Below, piece by piece: positions 12,588 through 59,083 of a stretch of DNA of 64,000 bases. The notes under the pieces are model-generated. The model saw nothing but the letters and a program-made list of their open reading frames with translations, did no database searches and was not told the origin of the DNA. Made by a program: the position numbers and the translations under genes. The stretch covers positions 2,089-66,088 of the forward strand of contig CAZKVI010000003.1 of NCBI GenBank assembly GCA_964556185.1, given 5' to 3'. This DNA is from an uncultured Methanosarcinales archaeon. Lineage in GTDB: Archaea > Nanobdellota > Nanobdellia > Woesearchaeales > DSVV01. The first letter of the stretch is position 1. Every line of letters begins with the position of its first letter.

Positions 12588-13892
12588 ATGGTAAAAAGAG
12601 CTGGAATGAAACAAAAGTTAGGAGTAATTAAGGAATTTGAAGACTTAATAGTTGAATATCCTATTATTGGTTCTGTTAATATGACTTCTTTACCAACTAA
12701 AACAGTTCAGCAAATGAGAGCTCAATTAAGAAAAAAAGGCGTTGTCCTTAAAATGAGCAAAAGAAGATTAATTAATATTGCAATAAATAATTGTAAAGAG
12801 AAAAAGAAAGGTATTGAAAATCTTCTACCTGAACTTAAAGGTATGCCAGCATTAATATTCACAAAAGAAAATCCTTTTGCATTATACAAGTTTTTATCTA
12901 AGAATAAATCATCTGCTCCTGCAAAAGCAGGCCAAATAGCTCCAAATGAAATTGTAGTTAAAGCAGGTCCAACAGGTTTTTCACCAGGACCAATTATTGG
13001 AGAACTAGGTGCTGTAGGAATTAAAGCAGGTGTTGATGGTGGAAAGATTGCAATCAAAGCAGATAGTGTTGTAGCTAAAGAAGGAGATGAAATTACAGAA
13101 CAATTAGCAGCAATATTAACAAGACTTGGTATTGAACCAATGGAAATTGGTTTAAACATGGTTGCAGTATTTGAAGAAGGTAATGTTTATGATAGTAAAA
13201 TCTTAGCAATTGATGAAGATGAATACATGAATAACATAACAACAGCAGCAACTTGGGCTTTCAACTTAGCAGTTGAAGCAGCAATACCAACACCAGATAC
13301 AACAGAATTACTATTACAAAAATGTTTCAAAGATTCCAAAGCAGTTGCAATGGAAGGAAATATTATGGCAGATGCTGTTGCAGAAGAATTACTTGCAAAA
13401 GCTGAAAGAGAAATGTTAGCTCTAAAAGCAGAAGCAAATATTAGTGATGCACCAGTAGTTGACAAAGTCAACGAAGAAGCGCAAGCTTCTGTAAAAGAAG
13501 AAGTTAAAGAAGAACCAAAAGCTGAAGAAAAACCAGCTGAAGAAGCAAAAGAAACAGAAACAAAAGAAGTTTCCGAACTTTCCGAGGGAAAGCAAGAAGC
13601 TGATAAAGCTTCTGTGGGAAACGAAGAAGTCGCAGAGACTTCTGAAGAAAAACCAGCAGAAACTACAGAAACTAAAGAAGGACCTGAAGCAGAAGGAGCT
13701 GATGAGGCACCTAAAGCAGAAGAAAAACCAGCTGAACCTGCACCAGCAGAGGAAGCAAAAGCTGAAGAGAAAGCTGATGAGGCTAAACCTGAAGCTAAAG
13801 AAGAAGCTGCACCAGAAGAACCAGCTAAAGAAGAACCTAAAGCTGAAGAAGCTCCTGCAAAAGCAGAAGATAAACCAGCTGATGAATCATAA
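12588..13892 (+). CDS. rplP0: 50S ribosomal stalk protein P0 (L10) with a long E/K/A/P-rich C-terminal extension
   Basis: The N-terminal 280 aa are typical archaeal P0. The C-terminal ~140 aa are low-complexity and end 'AEDKPADES' rather than the GLGALFG-type tail. Confidence 0.9.
13576..13617. repeat. copy of the 42-nt double-hairpin module (inside the P0 coding sequence)
   Basis: 'aactttccgagggaaagcaagaagctgataaagcttctgtgg' is 36/42 identical to 53151-53192. The stem differences are compensatory (CT..AG versus TC..GA). Confidence 0.7.
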
Positions 13893-13933
13893 TCAAGAGG
13901 TTGATTAATTATTATAACAAGGAGGAATTAAAA

Positions 13934-14245
13934 ATGGAATACGTTTATGCCGCAATGTTAATCCACAAAGCAGGTGGAAAAGTTGATGAAGCTAATGTTA
14001 AAAAAGTTTTAGAAGCAGCCGGAGTTAAAGCTGATGATGCAAGAATCAAAGCTTTAGTCGCAGCTCTCGATGGTGTCAATATTGACGAAGCAGTCGAGAA
14101 AGCAGCAGCAGCTCCTGTCGCAGCCGCACCAGCAGCTGCTCCAGCAGAAGGAGACGCAGCACCAGCTGAAGCTAAAAAAGACGAAGCTAAAGAAGAAGAG
14201 AAAAAAGAGGAAGCAGCAGCTGGCCTTGGAGCTCTTTTCGGATAA
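13934..14245 (+). CDS. rpl12: 50S ribosomal stalk protein P1 (L12)
   Basis: Starts '[15 protein letters not shown]' and ends '[12 protein letters not shown]'. SD 'aaggagga' lies 7 nt upstream of ATG 13934. Confidence 0.9.
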
Positions 14246-15441: not shown

Positions 15442-15873
15442 TTATTCACTCTTTTCTGCAGGTGCTTCTGCTTTCTCTTCACCAGCGTCTTCTTTCTTTT
15501 CTTCGGCTGGAGCTTCTTTTTTATCATCAGCACTTTCTTCCTTCTTTTCTGGTGCTGGAGCTTCTTGTTCTTCCTTCTTCTCAATCACTTTCTTAAAATG
15601 CTTTGCAATTAAACCTTCGCTCTCTAATTTCTCAAGCAAGTCTTTTTTATCATAGACATGAGCAATTAATTTAGCTCTTCTTGCTCCAAATCTTTGATAA
15701 ATGTGTTTAATTATAACTAAATCAGGATTAACTTTTAATTGAGTACCTAATGCAAACTTTAATTCTAGTCTTGAAGGTGTTGTAGCTGCAAAATTAACAA
15801 ATGCAGTTACTCTTTTCCTTGATAATAAAGGTGCGTCATTTTGTTTTGTTACTTCGATTTCCATCATCTTCAC
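15442..15873 (-). CDS. rps24e: 30S ribosomal protein S24e with an acidic/Lys-rich C-terminal tail
   Basis: '[12 protein letters not shown]...TPSR.E' type core. It is followed by the tail '[32 protein letters not shown]...'. Confidence 0.85.
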
Positions 15874-22549: not shown

Positions 22550-24718
22550 ATGGGAGAAAAGATGGTAGATAGGGTTACAAGAAGTATGAAGAACAAAGAA
22601 CAAATTAGAAATATTGCTATTTGTGCTCATATTGATCATGGTAAAACAACATTCTCAGATAACTTATTAGCAGGAGCAGGAATGTTGAGTGAAGAAATCG
22701 CAGGAAAAGCTTGTGTTCTTGATTTTCACGATGACGAACAAGAAAGAGGAATCACAATTGATTCTGCAAGTGTATCTATGGTTCACACTTTCAAAGAAAA
22801 AGATTACTTAATTAACTTAATTGATACTCCTGGTCACGTTGATTTTGGTGGAGACGTTACAAGAGCAATGCGTGCAGTTGATGGTGCAATTGTTTTAGTA
22901 GACGCTGTTGAAGGTGTTATGCCACAAACAGAAACAGTTCTAAGACAAGCATTAAAAGAAAGAGTTAAACCAATACTTTTCATTAATAAATCTGATAGAT
23001 TAATCAAAGAATTACAATTAACACCAGAACAAATGCAAGAAAAGTTTGTCAAAGTGATTACACATGTTAATAAATTAATCAAAGATATTGCAGGCGAAGA
23101 ACTTGGAAACAAATGGCAAGTTAATGTTCAAGACGGTTCTGTTTGTTTTGGATCTGCTTTCCACAATTGGGCACTTTCTATTGACTACATGCAGTCAAAA
23201 GGAATTTCTTTTAAAGATATTATTGATGCTTATGAAGCAGGCGAAGAAGCTTACAAAGAACTTGGAAAAAAAGCACCTTTGCATGAAGTTATCTTAAATT
23301 CTGTTATTACACATCTACCAAATCCAGATGAAGCTCAAAGATATAGAATTCCAAAGCTTTGGAGAGGAGATATGGAAAGTGAAGACGGAAAAGGATTAAT
23401 ATCATGTGATCCAAATGGCCCTTTATTTTTTATAATTACAAAAATTGTTGTTGATCCTCAAGCAGGAGAAATCTCTGCCGGTAGATTATTCTCAGGAACA
23501 ATGAAAAAAGGGACACCTGTTTACTTAAACAGAGCAAAGTGTAATTTAAGAGTACAACAAGTGTTTATTTACAATGGATCTAAAAGAGAAATTGTCGACG
23601 AGGTTCCAGCAGGAAACATTATTGGTGTAGCTGGATTAAAAGCAGCTCCTGGAGAAACAATTACATTAGAACCTTCAGAACCTTTTGAAGAAATTAAACA
23701 CATTTTTGATCCTGTTGTTACAAAAGCAATTGAAGCAGCAAGACCAAGCGATCTTCCAAAATTAATTGAAGTCTTAAGAATGGTTCAAAAAGAAGATCCA
23801 ACAATTAAAATTGAAATTAATGAAGAAACAGGCGAACATTTAATGAGTGGAATGGGTGAACTACACCTGGAAGTAATTGAAAATAGAATTAAGACAGAGA
23901 AAAATGTAGAAGTAAAGACTTCACCACCTGTTGTTGTTTACAGAGAAACCATTACAAAAACATCTGAAATATTTATGGGTAAATCCCCTAATAAACACAA
24001 CCATTTATTCTTTAGTGTGGAACCAGTTCCACAAGCTGTAGCTGATGCAATTAAGTCTGGCGACATCCCATCTGGAAGAATAAAGAAAAAAGACATTGAA
24101 TTAAGAGACAAATTGGTTGATTTAGGAATGGACTCTAAAATGGCTTCACAAGTTAAAAATATTCATGAAGGAAATATGTTATTTGAAACCACACGTGGTC
24201 AAGTACATATTGGAGAAATCATGGAAATGGTTAACGATATGTTTGAAGATGTTATGCATGCAGGTCCAGTTGCTAGAGAACCATGTACAGGAGTTTTAGT
24301 GAAATTTGTTGATTGTAAATTACATGAAGATGCTATTCACAGAGGTCCTGCACAAATGTACCCAGCAATTAGAGAAGGTATTAGAGAAGCAATGGCACAT
24401 GCAAAACCAATGATCTTTGAACCAGTACAAACCCTTCAATTCGAGGCTCCTGAAGAATTTATGGGAGAAGTTTCCAAATTAATCTCTAACAAAAGAGGAC
24501 AACTATTAGACATGCAACAAGATGCAGGTACAGTAGTTGTAAAAGGTAAAATGCCAGTTGGAGAAATGTTTGGGTTAAGTAATGATCTTAGATCTGCAAC
24601 AGGGGGAAGAGGAAGCTCTTCTTTAGTTGATCAGACATTCGAAAGACTACCTGATGAATTACAGCAAAAGATCATAAAACAAATTAGAGATAGAAAAGGG
24701 CTAACAGATGCTCAATAA
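22550..24718 (+). CDS. fusA: translation elongation factor 2 (aEF-2)
   Basis: G domain motifs 'AHIDHGKTT', 'DTPGHVDF' and 'NKSDR' are present, as is the diphthamide region 'HEDAIHRGPAQ'. Confidence 0.95.
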   Translation: MGEKMVDRVTRSMKNKEQIRNIAICAHIDHGKTTFSDNLLAGAGMLSEEIAGKACVLDFHDDEQERGITIDSASVSMVHTFKEKDYLINLIDTPGHVDFGGDVTRAMRAVDGAIVLVDAVEGVMPQTETVLRQALKERVKPILFINKSDRLIKELQLTPEQMQEKFVKVITHVNKLIKDIAGEELGNKWQVNVQDGSVCFGSAFHNWALSIDYMQSKGISFKDIIDAYEAGEEAYKELGKKAPLHEVILNSVITHLPNPDEAQRYRIPKLWRGDMESEDGKGLISCDPNGPLFFIITKIVVDPQAGEISAGRLFSGTMKKGTPVYLNRAKCNLRVQQVFIYNGSKREIVDEVPAGNIIGVAGLKAAPGETITLEPSEPFEEIKHIFDPVVTKAIEAARPSDLPKLIEVLRMVQKEDPTIKIEINEETGEHLMSGMGELHLEVIENRIKTEKNVEVKTSPPVVVYRETITKTSEIFMGKSPNKHNHLFFSVEPVPQAVADAIKSGDIPSGRIKKKDIELRDKLVDLGMDSKMASQVKNIHEGNMLFETTRGQVHIGEIMEMVNDMFEDVMHAGPVAREPCTGVLVKFVDCKLHEDAIHRGPAQMYPAIREGIREAMAHAKPMIFEPVQTLQFEAPEEFMGEVSKLISNKRGQLLDMQQDAGTVVVKGKMPVGEMFGLSNDLRSATGGRGSSSLVDQTFERLPDELQQKIIKQIRDRKGLTDAQ

Positions 24719-24738: not shown

Positions 24739-26331
24739 TTATTTTTTCAATTGCTCAGATTTAGCAAAATCTCTATTTGCTTCATCTTGTCTATCCATCC
24801 TTTCTAGTGCACAACCTCTATTGTTATAACATGTAGCCAAGAATTCATCTGAAACGTCTTCTGCTTTATCAATTACAATTGAATATTGTTCAAATGCATT
24901 TTCATTATCTCCTTTTTTAAGGTAAGCATATCCTAATCCTGATATTGCATCATAATCATCTGGTTCTAATTTTAATTGTTCAAATCTACACTCAATAGCT
25001 AAATCATATTCTTCTAAGCTTACAGCTGCAACTGCAGCATTATTATAAACAGCTTTTTGTGTTCCTTCCTCTAATTCATTTCTAACTTCTATTAATATTT
25101 TATAATGACGTAGTGCATCTTCTTTATTTCCAAGTTCTCCATTAGCATAAGCTACACCAAAACGTGCATCATGATTATTTGGATCAAAAGCAAGTAAATA
25201 ATAACCATCTACAATAGCACCTTTCCAATCACCGACTTCTCTTCTTGCACCAAAACTATTAGTTCGTATATACATACAATTAGGAAATAAAGAACTTGCT
25301 CTATTCAAACAATCAGAAGCTTTTTCCATACATTGCTCTTTTTCACCTTCTTCAGCAATATCAGATCTTACTATCCATTCATATCCTAAGTTCCCATACA
25401 TAATTCCAGCAATTTGTTTTTTATTAAGACCTTTCATATATCCTCCTCTTTCTAATTCATCTCTACCTAAACCAAATTCTTCAATATATTCTTCATCACT
25501 CCTTGCAATTCCTGCAGTAGTTTCCCAATTCACATGACTACCATCAAATTTCCCCCATCTTACAAACATATGTTCTGGGCCTAATACAGCTTCAATAGGG
25601 AAATTAAGTACTTGCCCAATTGCAAGATAAATCATTGACATATTGTCACAATCCATTTGGTAAAATCCTTGACTATATTTTTCTATTTTTCTTCTTCTTG
25701 AACCTCTTCTATATTCACTAAGGAAAGAGAAATAACCAGAAGGAGATTGAGTACGTAAAATATGATCATTTATGAAATCATTTACTTCTTCTGATGCTTC
25801 TGTAAATTCATCTCCTTCAAAATCAATAATTTTTTGAGCATTTCCTTCATCTTTTAGATATTCTACAATTTCTCCTTCTTGTTTTGTAAATGCTGAACCT
25901 AGTCTATTATTTTCTTTATAAACAACATTAAATATATCAGAAAGAGCTTCATCAATCCATCCCATAATCTTTCTTATGTCATCTAGATCATATGTTTCTA
26001 TCATTTCACTACTAAAAGCTGAGTCAACTCCTTCCTCACCAAGCCTTGAACCTAAAGATACTCTTTCTGGGCTTGCAATTTCTGCTTTATATTTTGTTCT
26101 AATTTCATGAATAACAGAATCTAAGAAATCATAATTTTCTTGAGTTACTTCAAAACCTTGTAGATGTTCAGCATCTAAAAATGAATGAGCATATGTATTA
26201 TATCTAGAATCAAATCCAGATCTTTCTCTCTCAATTGCCAAGGCTGTAACAGGTGCAAAACTAGTCACAATTGCTGCCAAACCAGCTGCAGCTCCACTAG
26301 CACCCAAAAACCACCTTCTACTCCTTTCCAT
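24739..26331 (-). CDS. Tat-signal protein with a SirB1-like transglutaminase-fold domain and C-terminal TPR repeats
   Basis: 'MERSRRWFLGASGAAAGLAAIV' carries a twin-Arg motif. 'DCDNMSMIYLAIGQVLNFPIEAVLGPEHMFVRW' shows the Cys...His spacing of Transglut_core2. The C-terminal ~200 aa are TPR-like. Confidence 0.55.
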   Translation of the reverse strand: MERSRRWFLGASGAAAGLAAIVTSFAPVTALAIERERSGFDSRYNTYAHSFLDAEHLQGFEVTQENYDFLDSVIHEIRTKYKAEIASPERVSLGSRLGEEGVDSAFSSEMIETYDLDDIRKIMGWIDEALSDIFNVVYKENNRLGSAFTKQEGEIVEYLKDEGNAQKIIDFEGDEFTEASEEVNDFINDHILRTQSPSGYFSFLSEYRRGSRRRKIEKYSQGFYQMDCDNMSMIYLAIGQVLNFPIEAVLGPEHMFVRWGKFDGSHVNWETTAGIARSDEEYIEEFGLGRDELERGGYMKGLNKKQIAGIMYGNLGYEWIVRSDIAEEGEKEQCMEKASDCLNRASSLFPNCMYIRTNSFGARREVGDWKGAIVDGYYLLAFDPNNHDARFGVAYANGELGNKEDALRHYKILIEVRNELEEGTQKAVYNNAAVAAVSLEEYDLAIECRFEQLKLEPDDYDAISGLGYAYLKKGDNENAFEQYSIVIDKAEDVSDEFLATCYNNRGCALERMDRQDEANRDFAKSEQLKK

Positions 26332-26569: not shown

Positions 26570-27862
26570 ATGGCAGATAAAAAAATCCATATAAACCTTG
26601 TTTTTATCGGACACGTCGATCACGGTAAATCCACTACAGTAGGAAGACTACTTTTCGATTCAGGAAATATTGATGAAGCAGCAATGAGAAAGTTAAAAGA
26701 CAAAGCACAAGAGCTTGGAAAAGGTGGCTTTGAATTCGCTTTTGTCATGGACAACTTAAAAGAAGAAAGAGAAAGAGGAGTTACAATTGATCTAGCTCAC
26801 AAAAAGTTTGAGACAGACAAATACTACTTCACTATTATCGATGCACCAGGTCACAAGGACTTTATCAAGAACATGATTACAGGAGCATCACAAGCAGATG
26901 CAGGTGTTTTAGTTGTAGCTGCAAATGATGGTGTAAATGCACAAACAAAAGAACACGTCTTCTTATCCAAAACACTTGGAGTTAACCAATTAATTGTTGC
27001 AGTTAACAAAATGGATATCTCAGGTGTTGACTATGCTGAAGCAAAATTCAATTCAGTTCAAGAAGAAGTAGGAACACTTTTGAAATCAGTAGGTTATAAA
27101 GCAGATGAAATTCCATTTGTAGCAATCGCTTCTTTACCAGGAGATAATGTTGTTAAGAAAACAGACAAAATGCCATGGTATAAAGGAAAATCATTATTAG
27201 AAACAATCAATGATCTTAAGGAACCTGAAAAACCAACAGAACTTCCACTAAGACTTCCAATCCAAGATGTTTATAACATCACAGGTATTGGTGTTGTCCC
27301 AGTTGGAAGAGTTGAAACAGGTGTACTAAAAGTTGGACAAAAAGTTGTAGCAATTCCAGGAAGAGAAGGAAAAGGAGTTCCAGGCGAAGTTAAATCTATT
27401 GAGATGCATCACGAACAATTACAAGAAGCTGTTCCAGGTGACAACTGCGGATTTAATGTTCGAGGCTTTGGAAAAACAGACATTGCAAGAGGCGATGTTA
27501 TTGGTCCAGCAGATAATGCACCAACATTAGCAACAGAATTCACAGCACAAATTGTTGTGTTAAATCATCCATCTGTTGTAACTGTCGGTTACACACCAGT
27601 ATTCCACATACATACAGCTCAAGTTGCATGTCAAATTACAGCAATTGAGAAAAAGCTAAATCCAGCAACTGGAGAAGTTTTAGCAGAAAATCCTGACTTC
27701 ATCAAAAATGGTGACGCAGCAATTGTTAAAATTAAACCAGTACAACCTTTAGTAATTGAAACACAAAAGGAAATTCCACAACTTTCAAGATTCGCAATCA
27801 GGGATTCCGGTGCAACAGTTGCAGCAGGTATGTGTACAGCTTTAACTAAAAAGGAACTTTAA
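26570..27862 (+). CDS. tuf: translation elongation factor 1-alpha (aEF-1A)
   Basis: '[10 protein letters not shown]', 'DAPGHKDF' and 'NKMD' are present. SD 'ggagga' lies upstream. Confidence 0.95.
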
Positions 27863-27926: not shown

Positions 27927-28235
27927 ATGCAAAAAGCAAGAATAAAGATAGCAAGTACAGACATAGACAAGATTAATAATACTTGTAGGTATATTTCTGA
28001 TATAGCTGATAAAACTGGTGTTGATATGCGTGGTCCTATTCCTTTACCAACTAAAAAATTAAAATTAACTACTCGTAAAACTCCTTGCGGAGACGGAAAA
28101 GCTTCCTGGGAAAGATACGAAATGCGAATTCATAAAAGATTCATTGATCTCGGCTTAGATGAAAGAGCTTTAAGATTGGTTATGAGGGTACCAATACCTG
28201 AAGGCTTGAACATAGAAATTGAAATGATTGATTAA
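27927..28235 (+). CDS. rps10: 30S ribosomal protein S10
   Basis: 'ARIKI.S.D...L...C..I...A...G....GPIPLPTK' pattern. It has the conserved position after tuf. Confidence 0.9.
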   Translation: MQKARIKIASTDIDKINNTCRYISDIADKTGVDMRGPIPLPTKKLKLTTRKTPCGDGKASWERYEMRIHKRFIDLGLDERALRLVMRVPIPEGLNIEIEMID

Positions 28236-28262
28236 GTTTGTTCTTGATTAACTCTTAGAATT

Positions 28263-28293
28263 GAGGCCGAAAGGCTCGAAGTCGAAGACTTCG
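28263..28293. repeat. two adjacent GC-rich mini-hairpins between the rps10 3'-end copies
   Basis: GAGGCC-GAAA-GGCTC is followed directly by (C)GAAGTC-GAA-GACTTC(G). The second hairpin recurs at 51907-51923 and, in variant forms, elsewhere. Confidence 0.6.
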
Positions 28294-28297
28294 CCCG

Positions 28298-28336
28298 CCT
28301 GAAGGCTTGAACATTGAGATTGAAATGATAGACTGA
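28298..28336 (+). repeat. second copy of the last 12 codons plus stop of rps10
   Basis: 'cctgaaggcttgaacattgagattgaaatgatagactga' versus 28197-28235 'cctgaaggcttgaacatagaaattgaaatgattgattaa'. The two are 34/39 identical and both translate to PEGLNIEIEMID*. Confidence 0.85.
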
Positions 28337-28390
28337 TTCTACCCAAAAGCTTTTATTTGATACTTGATTTCTCTCTATTTAGGGTGCAAA

Positions 28391-28828
28391 ATGGCTAAAG
28401 TTAAGAGTAATGCAATTGGAAAACTTGAAGATGGTACTGAAGATAATAGAGCATATAATGCATTGGTTCGTCAATATGGTGTTGCATTTAAAGAATTATA
28501 TGATAATTTTCCAAGAGAACCAAAACCAAGATTAGGTCTTTATATGATGAGTATTAAAAGACCTGAAGGAGTCTTACGTCTTACACCAGGGGTTGTTGGT
28601 AGTTCATCAGATGGGATCCAGAAAAGAGTTCAAGCACATCTAGGAAAATGCTTAGATCAAATTGGATTAGATGATTTATGTATGGACGTTTTTACAGTTT
28701 CTTGTAATAGTACGAGCAGTGTTTGTGAAATAACTCCTTACACACTTGAAGCTAGAGCTTATTTAAAACATTATGGACAACAAATACTTGTTCCAGAAAT
28801 GCGAAGATTAAGATCTCAATCAAAATAA
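28391..28828 (+). CDS. hypothetical protein
   Basis: ATG 28391 follows 'gggtgcaaa'. The listed TTG start at 28364 lies in the promoter-proximal 'ttgatttctct' block. No family recognised. Confidence 0.5.
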   Translation: MAKVKSNAIGKLEDGTEDNRAYNALVRQYGVAFKELYDNFPREPKPRLGLYMMSIKRPEGVLRLTPGVVGSSSDGIQKRVQAHLGKCLDQIGLDDLCMDVFTVSCNSTSSVCEITPYTLEARAYLKHYGQQILVPEMRRLRSQSK

Positions 28829-29236: not shown

Positions 29237-29356
29237 CGGGCCCACGGGGATTCGAACCCCGGGCCTATGGCTGTCTGTGCGTAAGCAAAGACCCAGTGGA
29301 TCTTTGATCCTAACGCGTAAGAGGCCACCGCTCTAACCAGGCTGAGCTATGAGCCC
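29237..29356 (-). tRNA. tRNA-Lys(CUU) with a 45-nt canonical (37/38) intron
   Basis: Acceptor GGGCTCA/TGGGCCC. D arm GCTC-AGCCTGGTTA-GAGC. Anticodon stem GTGGC/GCCAT with loop CTCTTA|A. T arm CGGGG-TTCGAAT-CCCCG. G73. Confidence 0.75.
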
Positions 29357-29485: not shown

Positions 29486-30367
29486 TTATCCTTGATAAAA
29501 ACCAATTAACTGTCTTTGTCTCTTAACATGTCTTAATTTTCTTAAGGCTTTTACTTCGATTTGTCTTATTCTTTCTCTTGTTAAATCAAATACTTGACCA
29601 ATCTCTTCAAGAGAATAATGACGAGGATGATCAATTCCATATCTCATTTTCATAACTTTTTCTTCTCTGGGTGTTAATTCAGCAAGTACACTTCTAACAG
29701 CCTTTGCTAAATCAGAATCCCCTACATTTTCATCAGGTCTTCGAACACTAGCTCCTTCTATAAAATCACCTATGGTTGCATCTGATTCATCACCAACTTT
29801 TTGCTCTAATGATAATGGTTCTCTTGCAAGCCTATAAATATCTTCAATTTTTTCAACTGGTTCACCTAACCAATCTGCAATTTCTTCAGAAGTTGGTTCT
29901 CTACCAAGATCAGTAACAAGTTTTCGAGCCGTTCTTCTAACTTTAGTAACCATTTCTAATTTATAAATTGGAATTCTTATTGTTCTTACTGTAGCTTCTA
30001 TTCCTCTAATAACACTTTGTCTAATCCACCAAGAAGCATATGTAGAAAATTTATATCCTCTTCTATATTCAAATTTTTCAACAGCTCTTATTAAACCTAA
30101 ATTACCTTCTTGAATTAAATCACCAAGTGGCAAGCCTCTATATTGGTATTGTCTTGCAATACTAACAACTAGTCTTAAATTGCCTTTTATTAAATCTTCT
30201 TTAGCTGTAGCTGCTTCATAAGGAGTGCCTTCTTCCATTGTTGTAGCTAATCTAACTTCATCATCTCTAGATAATAATGCTACAGCCCCCATTTGATTCA
30301 TATACTTCCTTAGAACTCTAGGATCATCTCTATATCTTGGCCCACCTTGATAATGACTAACACCCAT
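29486..30367 (-). CDS. bacterial-type RNA polymerase sigma-70 family factor (regions 2, 3 and 4; no region 1.1)
   Basis: '[61 protein letters not shown]' covers regions 2.1-2.4. '[13 protein letters not shown]' is region 3.0. '[15 protein letters not shown]' and '[29 protein letters not shown]' cover regions 4.1-4.2. Confidence 0.9.
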
Positions 30368-58773: not shown

Positions 58774-58938
58774 GTGGGGGTAGCCCGTAAGAAGATTCTT
58801 TGGGTTCCCTAGAGCAAAGTCTGGTCAAATGCGCAGGACTTAAGATACACTGAAGACAGCCTTCACGGCAAAGTCTTTGTTTTGAATTAGACATCCTGTC
58901 ACTTAGTGTGTTCGGGGGTTCGAATCCCCTCCCCCACA
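58774..58938 (+). tRNA. tRNA-Leu(UAA) with two introns (about 31 nt in the D arm and 48 nt at 37/38)
   Basis: Acceptor GTGGGGG/CCCCCAC with A73. D arm TAG[intron]CAAAGTCTGGTCAAATGC. Anticodon stem CAGGA/TCCTG with loop CTTAAG|A. Variable arm TCACTTAGTGTGT. T arm GGGGG-TTCGAAT-CCCCT. Confidence 0.8.
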
Positions 58939-59035
58939 TTTTATTCTTTATTTTCTATTTTATGTGCGTACTGCTTTGCAAAGCAAATGCAGTACTCGCT
59001 GACTTTTTCCCAAGTTTTTACGAACGTAAAAAGCT

Positions 59036-59058
59036 GGTGGGGATCATCCTCCCCCACA
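59036..59058 (+). pseudogene. tRNA-Leu mini-helix remnant
   Basis: 'GTGGGGATCATCCTCCCCCACA' retains the acceptor 5' strand, a T-loop remnant and the acceptor 3' strand. 'cctcccccacatttt' repeats 58928-58942 exactly. Confidence 0.45.
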
Positions 59059-59083
59059 TTTTCTTTTTGATTTTGATTAAGAA

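Follow-up and report, generated by a model that had tools for sequence, protein, structure and literature searches.

At the end of the ribosomal gene rps10, the window (the whole 64,000-nucleotide stretch of DNA analysed here, from an uncultured, tiny woesearchaeotal archaeon) carries the last codons of the gene twice, in two copies that differ only at silent sites and flank a short structured spacer. Comparison with related genomes suggests that this is a recurring cassette that swaps gene ends between lineages, and neither a chance repeat nor an assembly error. Our favoured explanation is a gene-end replacement cassette, recombinant and spread by homologous recombination, to which we give a probability of about 0.5. 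Below, we describe the arrangement, its relatives and its ancestry, and weigh other readings where the evidence bears on them; L-numbers denote individual rps10 loci.

Two ends of rps10 in the window

The duplication affects the end of rps10, which closes a conserved tuf-rps10 unit. The S10 protein has 6045 homologues, the named ones labelled Woesearchaeota/Nanoarchaeota S10. The features around the gene end are as follows.

27927-28235, + strand: rps10, ribosomal protein S10, 102 aa (open reading frame list; Pfam PF00338, Ribosomal_S10, on an identical protein)
28197-28235, + strand: copy 1, the active gene end, encoding PEGLNIEIEMID and the stop TAA (sequence CCTGAAGGCTTGAACATAGAAATTGAAATGATTGATTAA)
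28298-28336, + strand: copy 2, a gene end either displaced or of foreign origin, encoding PEGLNIEIEMID and the stop TGA (sequence CCTGAAGGCTTGAACATTGAGATTGAAATGATAGACTGA)
28337-28341, + strand: TTCTA, directly behind the copy 2 stop (flank comparison)
28391-28828, + strand: ORF145, an orphan, fast-evolving reading frame with a conserved leader at 28337-28390

Reading the sequence confirmed the repeat reported in a first-pass annotation: the last 12 codons plus stop recur, the copies differ at 5 of 39 nt (ATA>ATT, GAA>GAG, ATT>ATA, GAT>GAC and TAA>TGA) and encode the same peptide, and the spacer between them (28236-28297) has the reported length of 62 nt. All five differences are silent, which has a probability of ~2e-4 because only ~18% of random single-base changes in this stretch of the rps10 tail are silent. 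Copy 2 is offset from copy 1 by +101 nt, which puts it in another frame, and has no start codon. It is not part of a longer ORF, a possibility that the annotation had raised; its frame opens after the TGA at 28262-28264, and no start codon precedes copy 2. Scanning the entire 64-kb window yielded no third tail copy at the nucleotide or peptide level and, low-complexity coding repeats apart, no other short-range repeats of this type.

TTCTA also stands behind the rps10 stop of many single-copy Woesearchaeota (L017, L163, L143, L082, L081, L089, L093 and others), and copy 2 with its flank is thus a native-type gene end. ORF145 and its leader are variable cargo beside the duplication, and close relatives differ in having ORF145. 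It shares 55% amino acid identity with ORF148 of a relative, against 88-95% for the neighbouring genes, has two relatives among 1.8 billion representatives and belongs to no Pfam family.

The arrangement is found in independent assemblies

Four independent assemblies, made by JGI and ENA and coming from different samples, have an identical tail-spacer-tail arrangement (L001, L002, L003, L007), and in a sister lineage SPAdes and MEGAHIT assemblies contain a diverged version of it (L008, L011, L013). The source samples are JGI 3300009374, 3300009405 and 3300009332 and ENA ERZ23499057, ERZ23499040 and ERZ23499064. Three independent contigs end at one and the same base within the spacer (window position 28278).

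These assemblies bear on a simple reading, in which slippage or unequal crossing-over duplicated the stretch locally in tandem and the copies then drifted neutrally, or else the arrangement is an assembly chimera of co-occurring strains. Direct repeats around a hairpin are typical slippage substrates, one locus (L085) carries a perfect 95-nt tandem unit, and related species share the same samples. However, by our estimate drift predicts at least roughly 60% non-silent differences, and we see 0 of 5 in the window and 5 of ~77 overall, while the arrangement is identical in the four assemblies and diverged in others. Copy 2 is moreover flanked on both sides by sequence of the window's own species complex, the spacer on one side and the ORF145 leader on the other, so that a chimera would need two switches in ~25 nt. 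Both forms of this reading, highly improbable in our judgement, are already contradicted by the assembly, silent-change and flank comparisons.

The duplication recurs at rps10 and is restricted to it

One or two extra rps10 tails behind hairpin spacers were found in at least 10 other Woesearchaeota species and in one more distant DPANN lineage, with tail arrays examined in 80 of at least 580 confirmed rps10 loci. In 33 kb, there are 11 recurrences of the last four amino acids plus stop at most 400 nt downstream, versus 0 in 775 kb of control sequence. Among 1627 ORFs, only rps10 has a recurrent downstream tail; the one other match (L151, 384 nt downstream) looks like chance. Across 14 copy pairs, the codon differences are ~72 silent versus 5 non-silent, where 18% silent is expected at random, which is the opposite of the random divergence among tandem relatives that the first-pass annotation had set against its own reading. 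The repeats range from 15 to 42 nt and their period from 63 to 176 nt, the frame relation varies, the spacers (56-113 nt) are gene-free, and the same small size is seen in six lineages.

A structured module evolves by compensatory change

The spacer and the start of copy 2 together contain a structured module.

28236-28260, + strand: T-rich linker GTTTGTTCTTGATTAACTCTTAGAA, resembling native 3' flanks of single-copy relatives
28261-28268, + strand: arm TTGAGGCC (MFE fold, duplex energies and compensatory change across lineages)
28273-28275, + strand: 5' strand of P2, GGC, which pairs with GCC at 28297-28299 (the spacer G and the CC of the copy 2 Pro codon)
28277-28293, + strand: P3, the conserved GC-rich cassette hairpin CGAAGTC-GAA-GACTTCG
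28257-28315, + strand: extent of the structured module, by its match to a covariance model from five lineages

The linker is like the native 3' flanks of L017 (TTCTAGATAAAG), L158 (GTTTCGGATTAATGACTTCTTTAGAAT) and L086, and is a putative oligo-T termination tract. The arm complements the Gly-Leu-Asn codons GGCTTGAA in both copy 1 (28203-28210) and copy 2 (28304-28311), and this arm-tail helix shows compensatory change between lineages (AGGCC:GGCUU, AGACC:GGUCU and AGUCC:GGAUU). P3 has a seven-bp stem in all members with differing sequences (GCGAAUU/AAUUCGC, GCAAAAC/GUUUUGC, GCAAAUC/GAUUUGC), extended to 9 bp in L173, and four of its seven pairs have changed on both sides. P2 is invariant in every member (5/5 paired, zero variation) and is therefore uninformative for covariation. 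Over the module alignment, 96.4% of cells are paired and five pairs have changed on both sides, versus 20-54% of cells paired in slid controls. Compensatory evolution of this kind means that the structure of the module is under selection of some sort. The arm and hairpin occur only alongside the duplication; no single-copy tail of a close relative is followed by them, so the module is more than an ordinary 3' UTR that was carried along. The invariant GGC:GCC pairing over the right junction (G/CCNGAAGG) hints that the second copy itself belongs to the selected structure.

Both GC-rich hairpins of the first-pass annotation are present (GAGGCC-GAAA-GGCTC at 28263-28277, and P3), but of the two only the second is conserved, its changes being compensatory. 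The first occurs in the window genome alone, its conserved alternative being the arm helix with the Gly-Leu-Asn codons of a tail copy.

In the window, the module matches the covariance model with 71 bits (cmsearch, E=5e-15). The five training loci apart, there are no further members in the rest of the 64-kb window or in 75 other loci, and each genome has one copy. L173 is missed by the covariance model and was assigned to the module by eye only. Searching Rfam 15 with the whole window at the gathering threshold returned tRNAs alone, and the region 28100-28450 at E<=10 gave two matches (E 2.4 and 9.9), both far under threshold.

Several known motifs were tried and rejected. GAGGCCGAAAGGCUCGAA is not a hammerhead helix II, the CUGANGA core being missing from the window and its relatives as read from the sequences, and the geometry of a K-turn or C/D-box does not fit the GAA/UGAA loops by inspection. 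No R-box motifs of integron attC or IS200/IS605 ends were seen, and these elements produce no long duplication.

On another reading, the duplication is no scar and is upheld by selection as part of an RNA device that works in situ. The arm would pair either with a ribosome-free copy 1 or with copy 2, forming a long arm-P2-P3 hairpin, and the second tail would be the required decoy in a translation-sensing switch over 3'-end stability, processing or read-through to the gene that follows. Consistent with this, the two pairings are similar in strength in the window (-12.8 versus -17.1 kcal/mol), L008 (-14.3 versus -13.9) and L095 (-11.5 versus -15.6), the invariant P2 bridges the junction of spacer and copy 2, and P3 and the arm-tail helix change in compensation. 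The strand also fits, since a G-U pair in four of five members would be a C-A mismatch on the opposite strand, the module never occurs without a second copy, and the window region folds better than shuffled sequences (z = -2.6). Yet the first ~12 nt of copy 2 would suffice for such a switch, whereas the tail is kept in full, stop included, and differs only silently. For the arm, the upstream copy is by far the stronger partner in L105, L114, L173 and L102 (-15 to -19 versus -7 to -14 kcal/mol), and in L085, L086, L096 and L109 the duplicated stretch is just the final 5-8 codons, which leaves out the part that binds the arm. Close relatives live without the module, and copy 2 of L173 has acquired non-synonymous changes. 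Altogether, we regard an RNA device as possible but unlikely.

Close relatives lack the array or carry it in other states

The nearest relatives (L174, L175 and L176, rps10 body 96-97% identical) have one tail only. The sister lineage (95%) is polymorphic, with empty sites (L009, L010, L012, L015), a single-copy site with ORF148 (L014) and duplicated sites (L008, L011, L013) whose 56-nt spacer is homologous to that of the window; L170 is also among the relatives in an empty or single state. The spacers of window type and L008 type are ~20-25% diverged, as judged by eye on aligned sequences, and copy 2 is fully intact in both, as it is in L105 and L114. Had the arrays descended vertically, the untranslated copy 2 should have decayed, so the cassette model needs repeated re-creation or cycling.

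The copies in the window also have different relatives. Copy 2 with TTCT is identical at 36 of 39 positions to the single native rps10 tail of the co-occurring L163-L169, including ATG ATA GAC TGA TTCT; the rps10 body of these loci is <79% identical to the window's and absent from its six best matches. Codons 1-7 of copy 1 differ from the nearest relatives (L174, L175, L176, L014) at 7 of 21 nt (33%), against a background of 7 of 270 (2.6%) in the gene body, and its last six codons are those that natively end the gene in L174 and L014. Judged by these matches, copy 1 is a mosaic and the window's copies are mixed in ancestry.

Other loci allow the order of events to be read. The stop-proximal alleles ATT GAT TAA and ATA GAC TGA are in reversed order in L008, whose copy 2 bears the empty-site flank ATTCATTAATT, and the single tail of L014 consists of the 5' part of L008 copy 1 and the 3' part of L008 copy 2. 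In L173, copy 2 is the native tail of its sister L170 at background divergence, with two non-synonymous changes, and copy 1 has diverged by 25%. In the L095/L105/L114 clade, the single-copy L094 is of the copy-2 type (one difference from L095 copy 2), and copy 1 of L105 and L114 is a separate type, GGA CTY AAT (GGA CTT AAT in L173 copy 1), which the arm matches perfectly in L105 and L114 and with one mismatch in L173. Thus, where polarity is readable (L008, L173 and the L105/L114 clade), these comparisons identify the downstream copy as the displaced native end, and the upstream copy as one that appears to arrive with a spacer whose arm pairs with it. Some downstream copies are decaying, with a 6-nt deletion (L095), non-synonymous changes (L109, L127, L173) or truncation (L085, L086, L096).

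Two proposals of the first-pass annotation are borne out here. That both copies evolved as working ends in different lineages agrees with the L163-L169 match, the match of copy 1 to the tail of the nearest relatives, and L173. That recombination brought in a replacement end agrees with the diverged upstream copy of L173 and with the empty and single sites of the closest relatives, which the alignment recommended there uncovered along with the native status of the downstream copy where polarity is readable.

Silent-only divergence would also be accounted for in place if copy 2 were translated, with 101 nt removed as an archaeal bulge-helix-bulge (BHB) intron or skipped by ribosomal bypassing between matched codons, both ends then being under direct coding selection. 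The window has three intron-containing tRNAs, and splicing endonucleases of broad specificity occur in DPANN archaea (PMC5829648). However, copy 1 completes S10 with its own stop, so nothing needs removal, the period and frame relation vary, and the downstream copy decays in L173, L095, L109 and L127. Scans of six lineages turned up weak chance motifs but no canonical BHB motif whose splice points are homologous; the chance motifs are not conserved, and in the window none has an intron length equal to the repeat period. Around P2, both strands of the helix are looped on both sides, whereas a BHB would have staggered 3-nt bulges around a 4-bp helix. We consider splicing or bypassing very unlikely.

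Searches for a mobilising element

Pfam revealed no integrase or transposase in ORF145, in ORF138 or in 10 further ORFs scanned as far as 16 kb downstream, and the neighbours of duplicated loci in other lineages share no gene family. The suggestion that the insert is the stump of a larger element draws no support from this or from the same small size in six lineages; the suggested miniature element or cassette fits best of the annotation's three options. A MITE or transposon with target-site duplication does not match either, because the module is single-copy and the repeats are 15-42 nt and not identical. ORF145 was rejected as a mobiliser, being an orphan that is absent from the other duplicated loci. 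An integrase gene in L172 stands beside tRNA-Ser, 300 nt from rps10 and not at its tail, and a LAGLIDADG ORF in L008-type loci lies 1.1 kb downstream, outside both copies, and is not in the window. In viral contigs, there was no rps10-tail-like attP, the one match being by chance to an apparent phage structural protein (…YGLNIEIEMNKD…).

The spacer hairpin motif had 59 matches in metagenome contigs, all coding, in GC-rich contigs and due to chance; this collection evidently lacks relevant contigs, which makes the motif scan uninformative. An inverted-repeat scan between tails and flanks was too noisy in this AT-rich DNA. A literature search found no description of tandem rps10 ends.

The module might nevertheless be a non-autonomous mobile mini-element of ~95-125 nt, with the stop region of rps10 as its specific target, that relies on a recombinase or transposase encoded elsewhere to move it in trans. 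Arm, hairpin and tail would be its recognition or guide site, and a small circle of tail plus spacer with a dumbbell fold could integrate Campbell-style into the resident tail; the circle junction would read …GCCCG/CCTGAAGG… joined to the copy 1 end. The constant architecture and right junction in three host clades whose nearest relatives lack the array would fit, as would the size and insertion geometry, which are those of a single crossover of a one-tail circle. Read from the sequences, permuting the circle makes arm/P2 and tail start one continuous helix, and the three contigs that break at one spacer base would also fit. Against it, each genome has a single copy, with no other in the window or the 75 loci, all duplicated loci lack an integrase or transposase nearby, the sole integrase seen is at a tRNA gene, and no attP-like tail was found in the viral contigs scanned. 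Crossover points vary between lineages, as homologous rather than site-specific recombination predicts, and junctions and spacers differ in other lineages. As to a fixed crossover core, the copies share identical runs of 16 nt in the window and 29 nt in L008, but the allele order is swapped between lineages and the junctions differ. A mobile element of this kind thus seems doubtful.

More broadly, arm, hairpin and tail could constitute a new element, miniature and without protein, or a new RNA device, in either case confined to the DPANN rps10 stop region, a tentative idea that we hold to be improbable as a whole. As a new element, a ~100-nt dumbbell circle of DNA or RNA would base-pair through its arm with the Gly-Leu-Asn codons as target, its silently recoded end making insertion harmless. 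As a new device, the module would be retained as a translation-sensing 3' switch.

A model of gene-end replacement

In the gene-end replacement cassette that we favour, the final ~13 codons of rps10 would be the last stretch still common to diverged Woesearchaeota lineages before a hypervariable region. The cassette would comprise an rps10 tail and stop, the short T-rich linker, the arm complementary to that tail's Gly-Leu-Asn codons, P3 and the start of a second tail. We infer that it moves between genomes by ordinary homologous recombination, with the left crossover inside rps10 and the right one where the recipient's own tail lines up with the second tail of the cassette. The working gene end would then be the incoming tail, and the resident tail would be shifted downstream, untranslated. 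The copies would differ almost only silently because every copy was once a working gene end in some lineage. Recombination between copies may collapse arrays into hybrid single tails, and arrays may also stack to three copies, as in L102, where each of three units has its own matched arm. Tails would probably cycle in this way between active and displaced positions, with only arrays of well-diverged copies persisting. The module may act at the level of the + strand RNA, for instance by stabilising the 3' end of the rps10 transcript or insulating it, and such a role would account for its retention. The right-hand homology available for a crossover is short (<=39-44 nt), which counts against the cassette, as do the intact copy 2 in diverged arrays, the absence of arm and hairpin behind single-copy tails, the GGC:GCC pairing over the right junction and the silence of the model on the first duplication.

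If this reading is correct, recombination between lineages of uncultured DPANN archaea has repeatedly taken place at the end of an operon that ranks among the most conserved, and the tracts of silent differences at the rps10 end record DNA exchange partners, including two species from the same samples. The end of an essential gene would be replaced harmlessly by a ~100-nt vehicle, to our knowledge far below the size of any integrating element. Candidate reasons for selection on the module are protection of the mRNA 3' end, insulation from the variable neighbour or a role as recognition site, and learning which applies would extend the very thin knowledge of DPANN RNA and recombination. Tandem gene ends can also break assemblies, as in the three contigs that stop in the spacer, and mislead gene-based strain typing.

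Comparison with known systems

Programmed bypassing, as in T4 gene 60 and mitochondrial byps, requires a gap that interrupts the ORF, whereas copy 1 gives full-length S10 with its own stop. The arm recalls attenuator RNA switches in that it can pair with the start of either copy, a ribosome on the first favouring the second. Unlike attenuators, the rps10 arrays lie at a gene 3' end in an archaeon, have no readable terminator/anti-terminator logic and keep a full coding tail in the second partner; we know of no attenuator that needs such a tail.

Integrative elements at the 3' ends of tRNA genes likewise target a conserved gene end that the incoming DNA regenerates, and accrete in tandem at hot spots; the tRNA-Ser integrase of L172 is an example beside a relative's rps10. 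In contrast, the rps10 target is protein-coding, the repeats are non-identical, and the DNA between them contains neither an element body nor an integrase.

Paquin et al. in 1994 and 2000 reportedly described Allomyces atp6/Glomus hybrids, in which in-frame foreign DNA brings a replacement C-terminus and leaves the native end as a downstream remnant, and short hairpin elements are said to be associated with such mitochondrial mobile regions. A foreign end upstream and a native remnant downstream are also what we see in L008, L173 and the L105/L114 clade. The mitochondrial hybrids have an endonuclease or dpo ORF between the ends, whereas the rps10 spacers have no ORF, and the setting is an organelle rather than an archaeal chromosome. 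Mitochondrial double-hairpin elements are multi-copy, and the rps10 module is single-copy and bound to rps10. Gene hybrids and double-hairpin elements are both documented (PMC3787672).

The e14/phage 21 site in the icd gene of E. coli differs in that a 15-kb prophage with its own integrase lies between the copies, whereas the rps10 arrays have 56-113 nt, gene-free, with no integrase near. The arrays also differ in their variable crossover points, structured and compensating spacer, presence in many lineages and stacking to three copies. In both systems, a gene 3' end occurs twice in direct orientation (icd and the C-terminal pseudogene icdC), the incoming upstream copy completes the gene and displaces the resident end, the differences are mainly silent, and close relatives have unoccupied sites (here L009, L014, L174-L176 and L170). 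Excision of e14 by icd x icdC recombination brings in blocks of silent changes, so that collapse gives a functional hybrid end with a silent-substitution block (PMC13626634), which is the relationship of L014 to L008.

The duplicated rps10 end in the window

The window is AT-rich (GC ~31%), and its rps10 gene follows aEF-1alpha, in archaeal gene order. Named S10 homologues (85-89% identical) are all labelled Woesearchaeota or Nanoarchaeota.

24739-26331 (-): TPR-repeat gene, 530 aa, between a 722-aa ORF and aEF-1alpha
26570-27862: aEF-1alpha, directly before rps10
27927-28235: rps10, its last 12 codons and stop (28197-28235) being copy 1
28236-28297: spacer, 62 nt
28298-28336: copy 2
28337-28341: TTCTA after the copy 2 stop; it also follows the rps10 stop in L017, L163, L143, L082, L081, L089 and L093 (loci of other assemblies)
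28391-28828 (+): ORF145, an orphan beside rps10 (ORF145/148 also at L008 3468-3914 and L174 823-906)

As the first-pass annotation had proposed, the end of rps10 at 28197-28235 occurs again at 28298-28336; the two differ at five positions, each time silently, and both encode PEGLNIEIEMID*. Because a random single-base change here is silent in only ~18% of cases, the pattern has p ~2e-4 for the window locus alone. Copy 2 might have been a piece of a longer ORF, a possibility the same annotation had raised against its own view; the ORF reading of the window shows that it is not. The 64-kb window holds no third tail copy, and the spacer is single-copy within it. The tail-spacer-tail block is base-for-base identical in four contigs (L001-L003 and L007) from different samples and assembly pipelines. 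Among contigs L004-L007, which come from different assemblies, three end at the same spacer base (window 28278, directly after …GAGGCCGAAAGGCTCG) and the fourth stops where copy 2 does (28336); these shared breaks suggest a heterogeneous population, or else trouble with coverage or the assembly graph at the hairpin.

Ancestry and polarity of the copies

The native tail of the species represented by L163-L169, which has one copy only (…ATT GAG ATA GAA ATG ATA GAC TGA TTCTA), matches copy 2 and its flank (…ATT GAG ATT GAA ATG ATA GAC TGA TTCTA) at 36/39 nt. This species shares three samples with the window lineage (3300009405, 3300009332 and ERZ23499064) and was also recovered from sibling samples 3300009375 and ERZ23499038; its rps10 body is <79% identical to that of the window, as it ranks below the six best matches, which go down to 79%. 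Copy 1 ends in six codons that equal the native tail shared by L174 and L014, while over the seven codons before them it departs from L174 at 7/21 nt, versus 7/270 in the remaining gene; the linker behind copy 1 is similar to the native flanks of L017, L158 and L086. These separate matches make the block a mosaic of at least three ancestries. The pentamer TTCTA stands right after the rps10 stop in many single-copy Woesearchaeota whose downstream genes differ, which on sequence grounds makes it a conserved signal immediately beyond the coding sequence. Since stop plus TTCTA is common in single-copy loci, copy 2 with its flank resembles a complete native-type gene end.

The nearest relatives (L174, L175 and L176) all have a single-copy tail, and their rps10 bodies match the window at 263/270 nt (L174) or 259/270 (L175 and L176). 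Their tails read CCA/CCT GAA GGT CTT AAT ATC GAG ATT GAR ATG ATY GAT TAA, followed by 9 nt and TTCT; the ORF145 leader (TTCTACC…) comes next in L174 and L176, and L175 runs into other sequence (TTCTTTT…). A sister lineage with ~95% nucleotide identity to the window (EF-1alpha and rps10) shows three states at the rps10 end: an empty state with convergent ORF138 38 nt past rps10 (L009, L010, L012 and L015), a single tail with ORF148 (L014), and a duplicated tail with ORF148 (L008, L011 and L013). Between the duplicated tails lies a spacer of 56 nt, a clear homologue of the window spacer; ATA GAC TGA stands in copy 1 here and ATT GAT TAA in copy 2, so the window order is swapped. Over 1665 nt, L008 and L014 are 1.1% diverged, which makes their insertion/deletion difference recent. 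At its 5' side the L014 tail equals L008 copy 1 and at its 3' side copy 2, the hybrid that collapse by recombination between copies would give.

Several loci bear on which copy came in. The downstream copy of L008 is flanked by the 11-nt flank of the empty site (ATTCATTAATT). Against the native tail of its sister L170, L173 has 4/39 nt changed in the downstream copy (two of the four changes non-synonymous, E>K and M>R), in line with the 7.5-10% background, and 10/39 in the upstream copy. Within the L095/L105/L114 clade, single-copy L094 carries the copy-2 tail type, with one difference to L095 copy 2; L105 and L114 share with L173, from another clade, a distinct copy 1 type, GGA CTY AAT. The arm, a spacer segment (28261-28268 in the window) complementary to the Gly-Leu-Asn codons of a tail copy, is perfectly complementary to this type in L105 (GGGACUUAA:UUAAGUCCC) and L114 (GGGACUCAA:UUGAGUCCC), a compensatory pair, and each of the three copies in L102 is followed by its own matched arm. 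These observations indicate that tail, linker, matched arm and hairpin move as one unit and that the resident end is the one displaced, now the downstream copy. Decay of the downstream copies can be followed in steps from intact, through a 6-nt deletion (L095) and non-synonymous change (L109, L127 and L173), to 5-8 codons (L085, L086 and L096). Altogether, relatives, ancestry and polarity support the original interpretation that the copies are ends of different lineages joined by recombination.

Recurrence at rps10

We surveyed 80 rps10 loci of species-representative genomes (80 of at least 580 confirmed loci), plus further contigs. Among the loci examined, one extra tail lies behind a hairpin-containing spacer in L095, L105, L114, L086, L096, L109, L173 and the more distant L127, and two extra tails lie behind such spacers in L102 and L085; no non-DPANN archaeon of the set has a duplicated rps10 tail. 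Counting exact repeats of the final four residues and stop within 400 nt downstream gives 11 in 33 kb, versus none in 775 kb of control sequence. A check of 1627 ORFs (70 aa or longer, from the window and all loci) singled out rps10 as the sole recurrent case; the one further hit, an ORF in L151, has a single tail recurrence 384 nt downstream, probably by chance. Fourteen within-genome copy pairs hold ~72 silent versus 5 non-silent codon differences, a count in which the search criterion favours intact copies in the last four codons, the upstream codons being unbiased and equally silent. L085 (2797-3002) carries a perfect 95-nt tandem duplication of the last five rps10 codons and hairpin spacer, its third tail being silently diverged, which shows that tail arrays can also expand locally.

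Spacer structure

Six lineages (window, L008, L095, L105, L114 and L173) have a common architecture: arm, (C/U)GAA(A/U), GGC, 1-2 nt, a 7-9-bp hairpin (P3, window 28277-28293), 3-7 nt, and G^CC(N)GAAGG (^, copy 2 junction). Thus the double hairpin of the first-pass annotation stands in part: P3 is conserved in all six, but GAGGCC-GAAA-GGCTC is not, relatives pairing CC/GG alone there. In a structure-aware alignment of five of the six, 96.4% of cells are paired, versus only 20-54% when partners are slid by 1-3 columns, and five pairs, four of them in P3, have changes on both sides. In five related sequences, such compensatory change is supportive of the predicted structure, short of proof. Because one arm-tail pair is G-U in 4/5 members and would be a C-A mismatch on the opposite strand, + strand RNA (or + strand single-stranded DNA) is favoured. 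A covariance-model search of the window and 75 loci found no further module member, and Rfam gave no match to it. A P3-like palindrome at 51907-51923 (AGAAGTCGAAGACTTCT) has two mismatches to CGAAGTCNNNGACTTCG, a likeness that is probably coincidental.

The module might be an RNA switch working in place, with the second tail needed as the arm's alternative partner; we regard this as unlikely. By duplex energies, the arm pairs with either copy at similar strength in the window, L008 and L095, and strongly prefers the upstream copy in L105, L114, L173 and L102. A BHB intron was rejected, as the six lineages scanned have no canonical motif with frame-restoring splice points; translational bypassing is unneeded because copy 1 has its own stop.

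Neighbouring genes

29237-29356 (-): tRNA gene, Rfam tRNA model
48650-48763 (-): tRNA gene, Rfam tRNA model
48773-48897 (-): tRNA gene, Rfam tRNA model

These three tRNA genes (114-125 nt; 41-55 bits) presumably contain introns; ARAGORN missed all three and reported tRNA-Ala alone (50269-50342). A complete bacterial-type sigma-70 family gene lies at 29486-30367 (-) (Pfam Sigma70 regions 1.2, 2, 3 and 4 on the identical L001 protein), and L009, L010 and L012 have two in tandem. ORF145/148 shows presence/absence polymorphism adjoining rps10. With 55% aa identity, versus 88% for ORF138 and 95% for S10, it is evolving much more rapidly than the genes around it; it has only two relatives among 1.8 billion representative proteins, and keeps a well conserved leader (TTCTACCC…AGGGTGCAAAATG). 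As an orphan not found beside other duplicated loci, it was rejected as a mobiliser.

The 722-aa ORF (22550-24718) is probably EF-2, by length and position. Since an EF-G/EF-2 gene directly precedes aEF-1alpha in L009, L011 and L015, a conserved operon is broken in the window lineage. In the sister lineage, a free-standing 245-aa LAGLIDADG_3 ORF (L008 4445-5182, also in L011, L013 and L014) separates ORF138 from the sigma factor gene, a position held by an intron-containing tRNA gene in the window and by a radical SAM gene in empty-site genomes. Long imperfect GAA/AAA/CCA/GCT-rich coding repeats (13489-14211 and 15454-15549) encode acidic low-complexity, Lys/Glu/Pro/Ala-rich segments. A 27-nt direct repeat (CCTCCCCCACATTTT…) occurs at 58928-58954 and 59048-59074 (120-nt spacing, 89% identity).

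Mechanism and comparison with known systems

Diverged lineages share homology as far as the rps10 tail, behind which a variable region starts. A donor already carrying tail-spacer-tail could pass on the insertion through a plain double crossover, with the left exchange anywhere in rps10 or copy 1 and the right one between donor copy 2 and the recipient's sole tail. This would give variable crossover points, swapped allele order, excess divergence confined to the tail, recently displaced native ends still intact, three-unit stacks where donor and recipient both hold arrays, and collapse into hybrid single tails. Survivorship should favour arrays with many silent differences between copies, since similar copies recombine away, which would enrich for silently diverged arrays.

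We give this recombinant cassette model a probability of about one half. Alone, it leaves unexplained the compensatory conservation of the structured module, which is never found behind single-copy tails, the P2 pairing (GGC:GCC, 28273-28275 with 28297-28299) that reaches across the copy 2 junction, and the intact copy 2 in cassettes ~20-25% diverged (read by eye from aligned spacers). Because of these four points, the RNA device stays live, as does a mini-element mobilised in trans, which we consider slightly less probable still. No integrase or transposase was found in the 16 kb downstream of the duplication or beside the other duplicated loci, and the viral contigs scanned held no rps10-tail-like attachment site. 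All other readings are very improbable. L172, from another Woesearchaeota lineage, has a 425-aa tyrosine integrase gene (1816-2712) right behind a tRNA-Ser gene that is 300 nt downstream of an rps10 with a single tail; the island, present in one population variant and missing from two others (L170 and L171), is a classic tRNA-targeted one within the same variable region.

What appears to be new is a gene-less structured cassette of ~100 nt that does this recurrently, confined to rps10 and found in many DPANN lineages; the literature searched gave no description of it. Silently diverged duplicate gene ends at integration sites are already known. When the e14 prophage excises, icd gains a block of silent changes (PMC13626634); for the collapse step proposed here, this icd/icdC pair is the documented counterpart.
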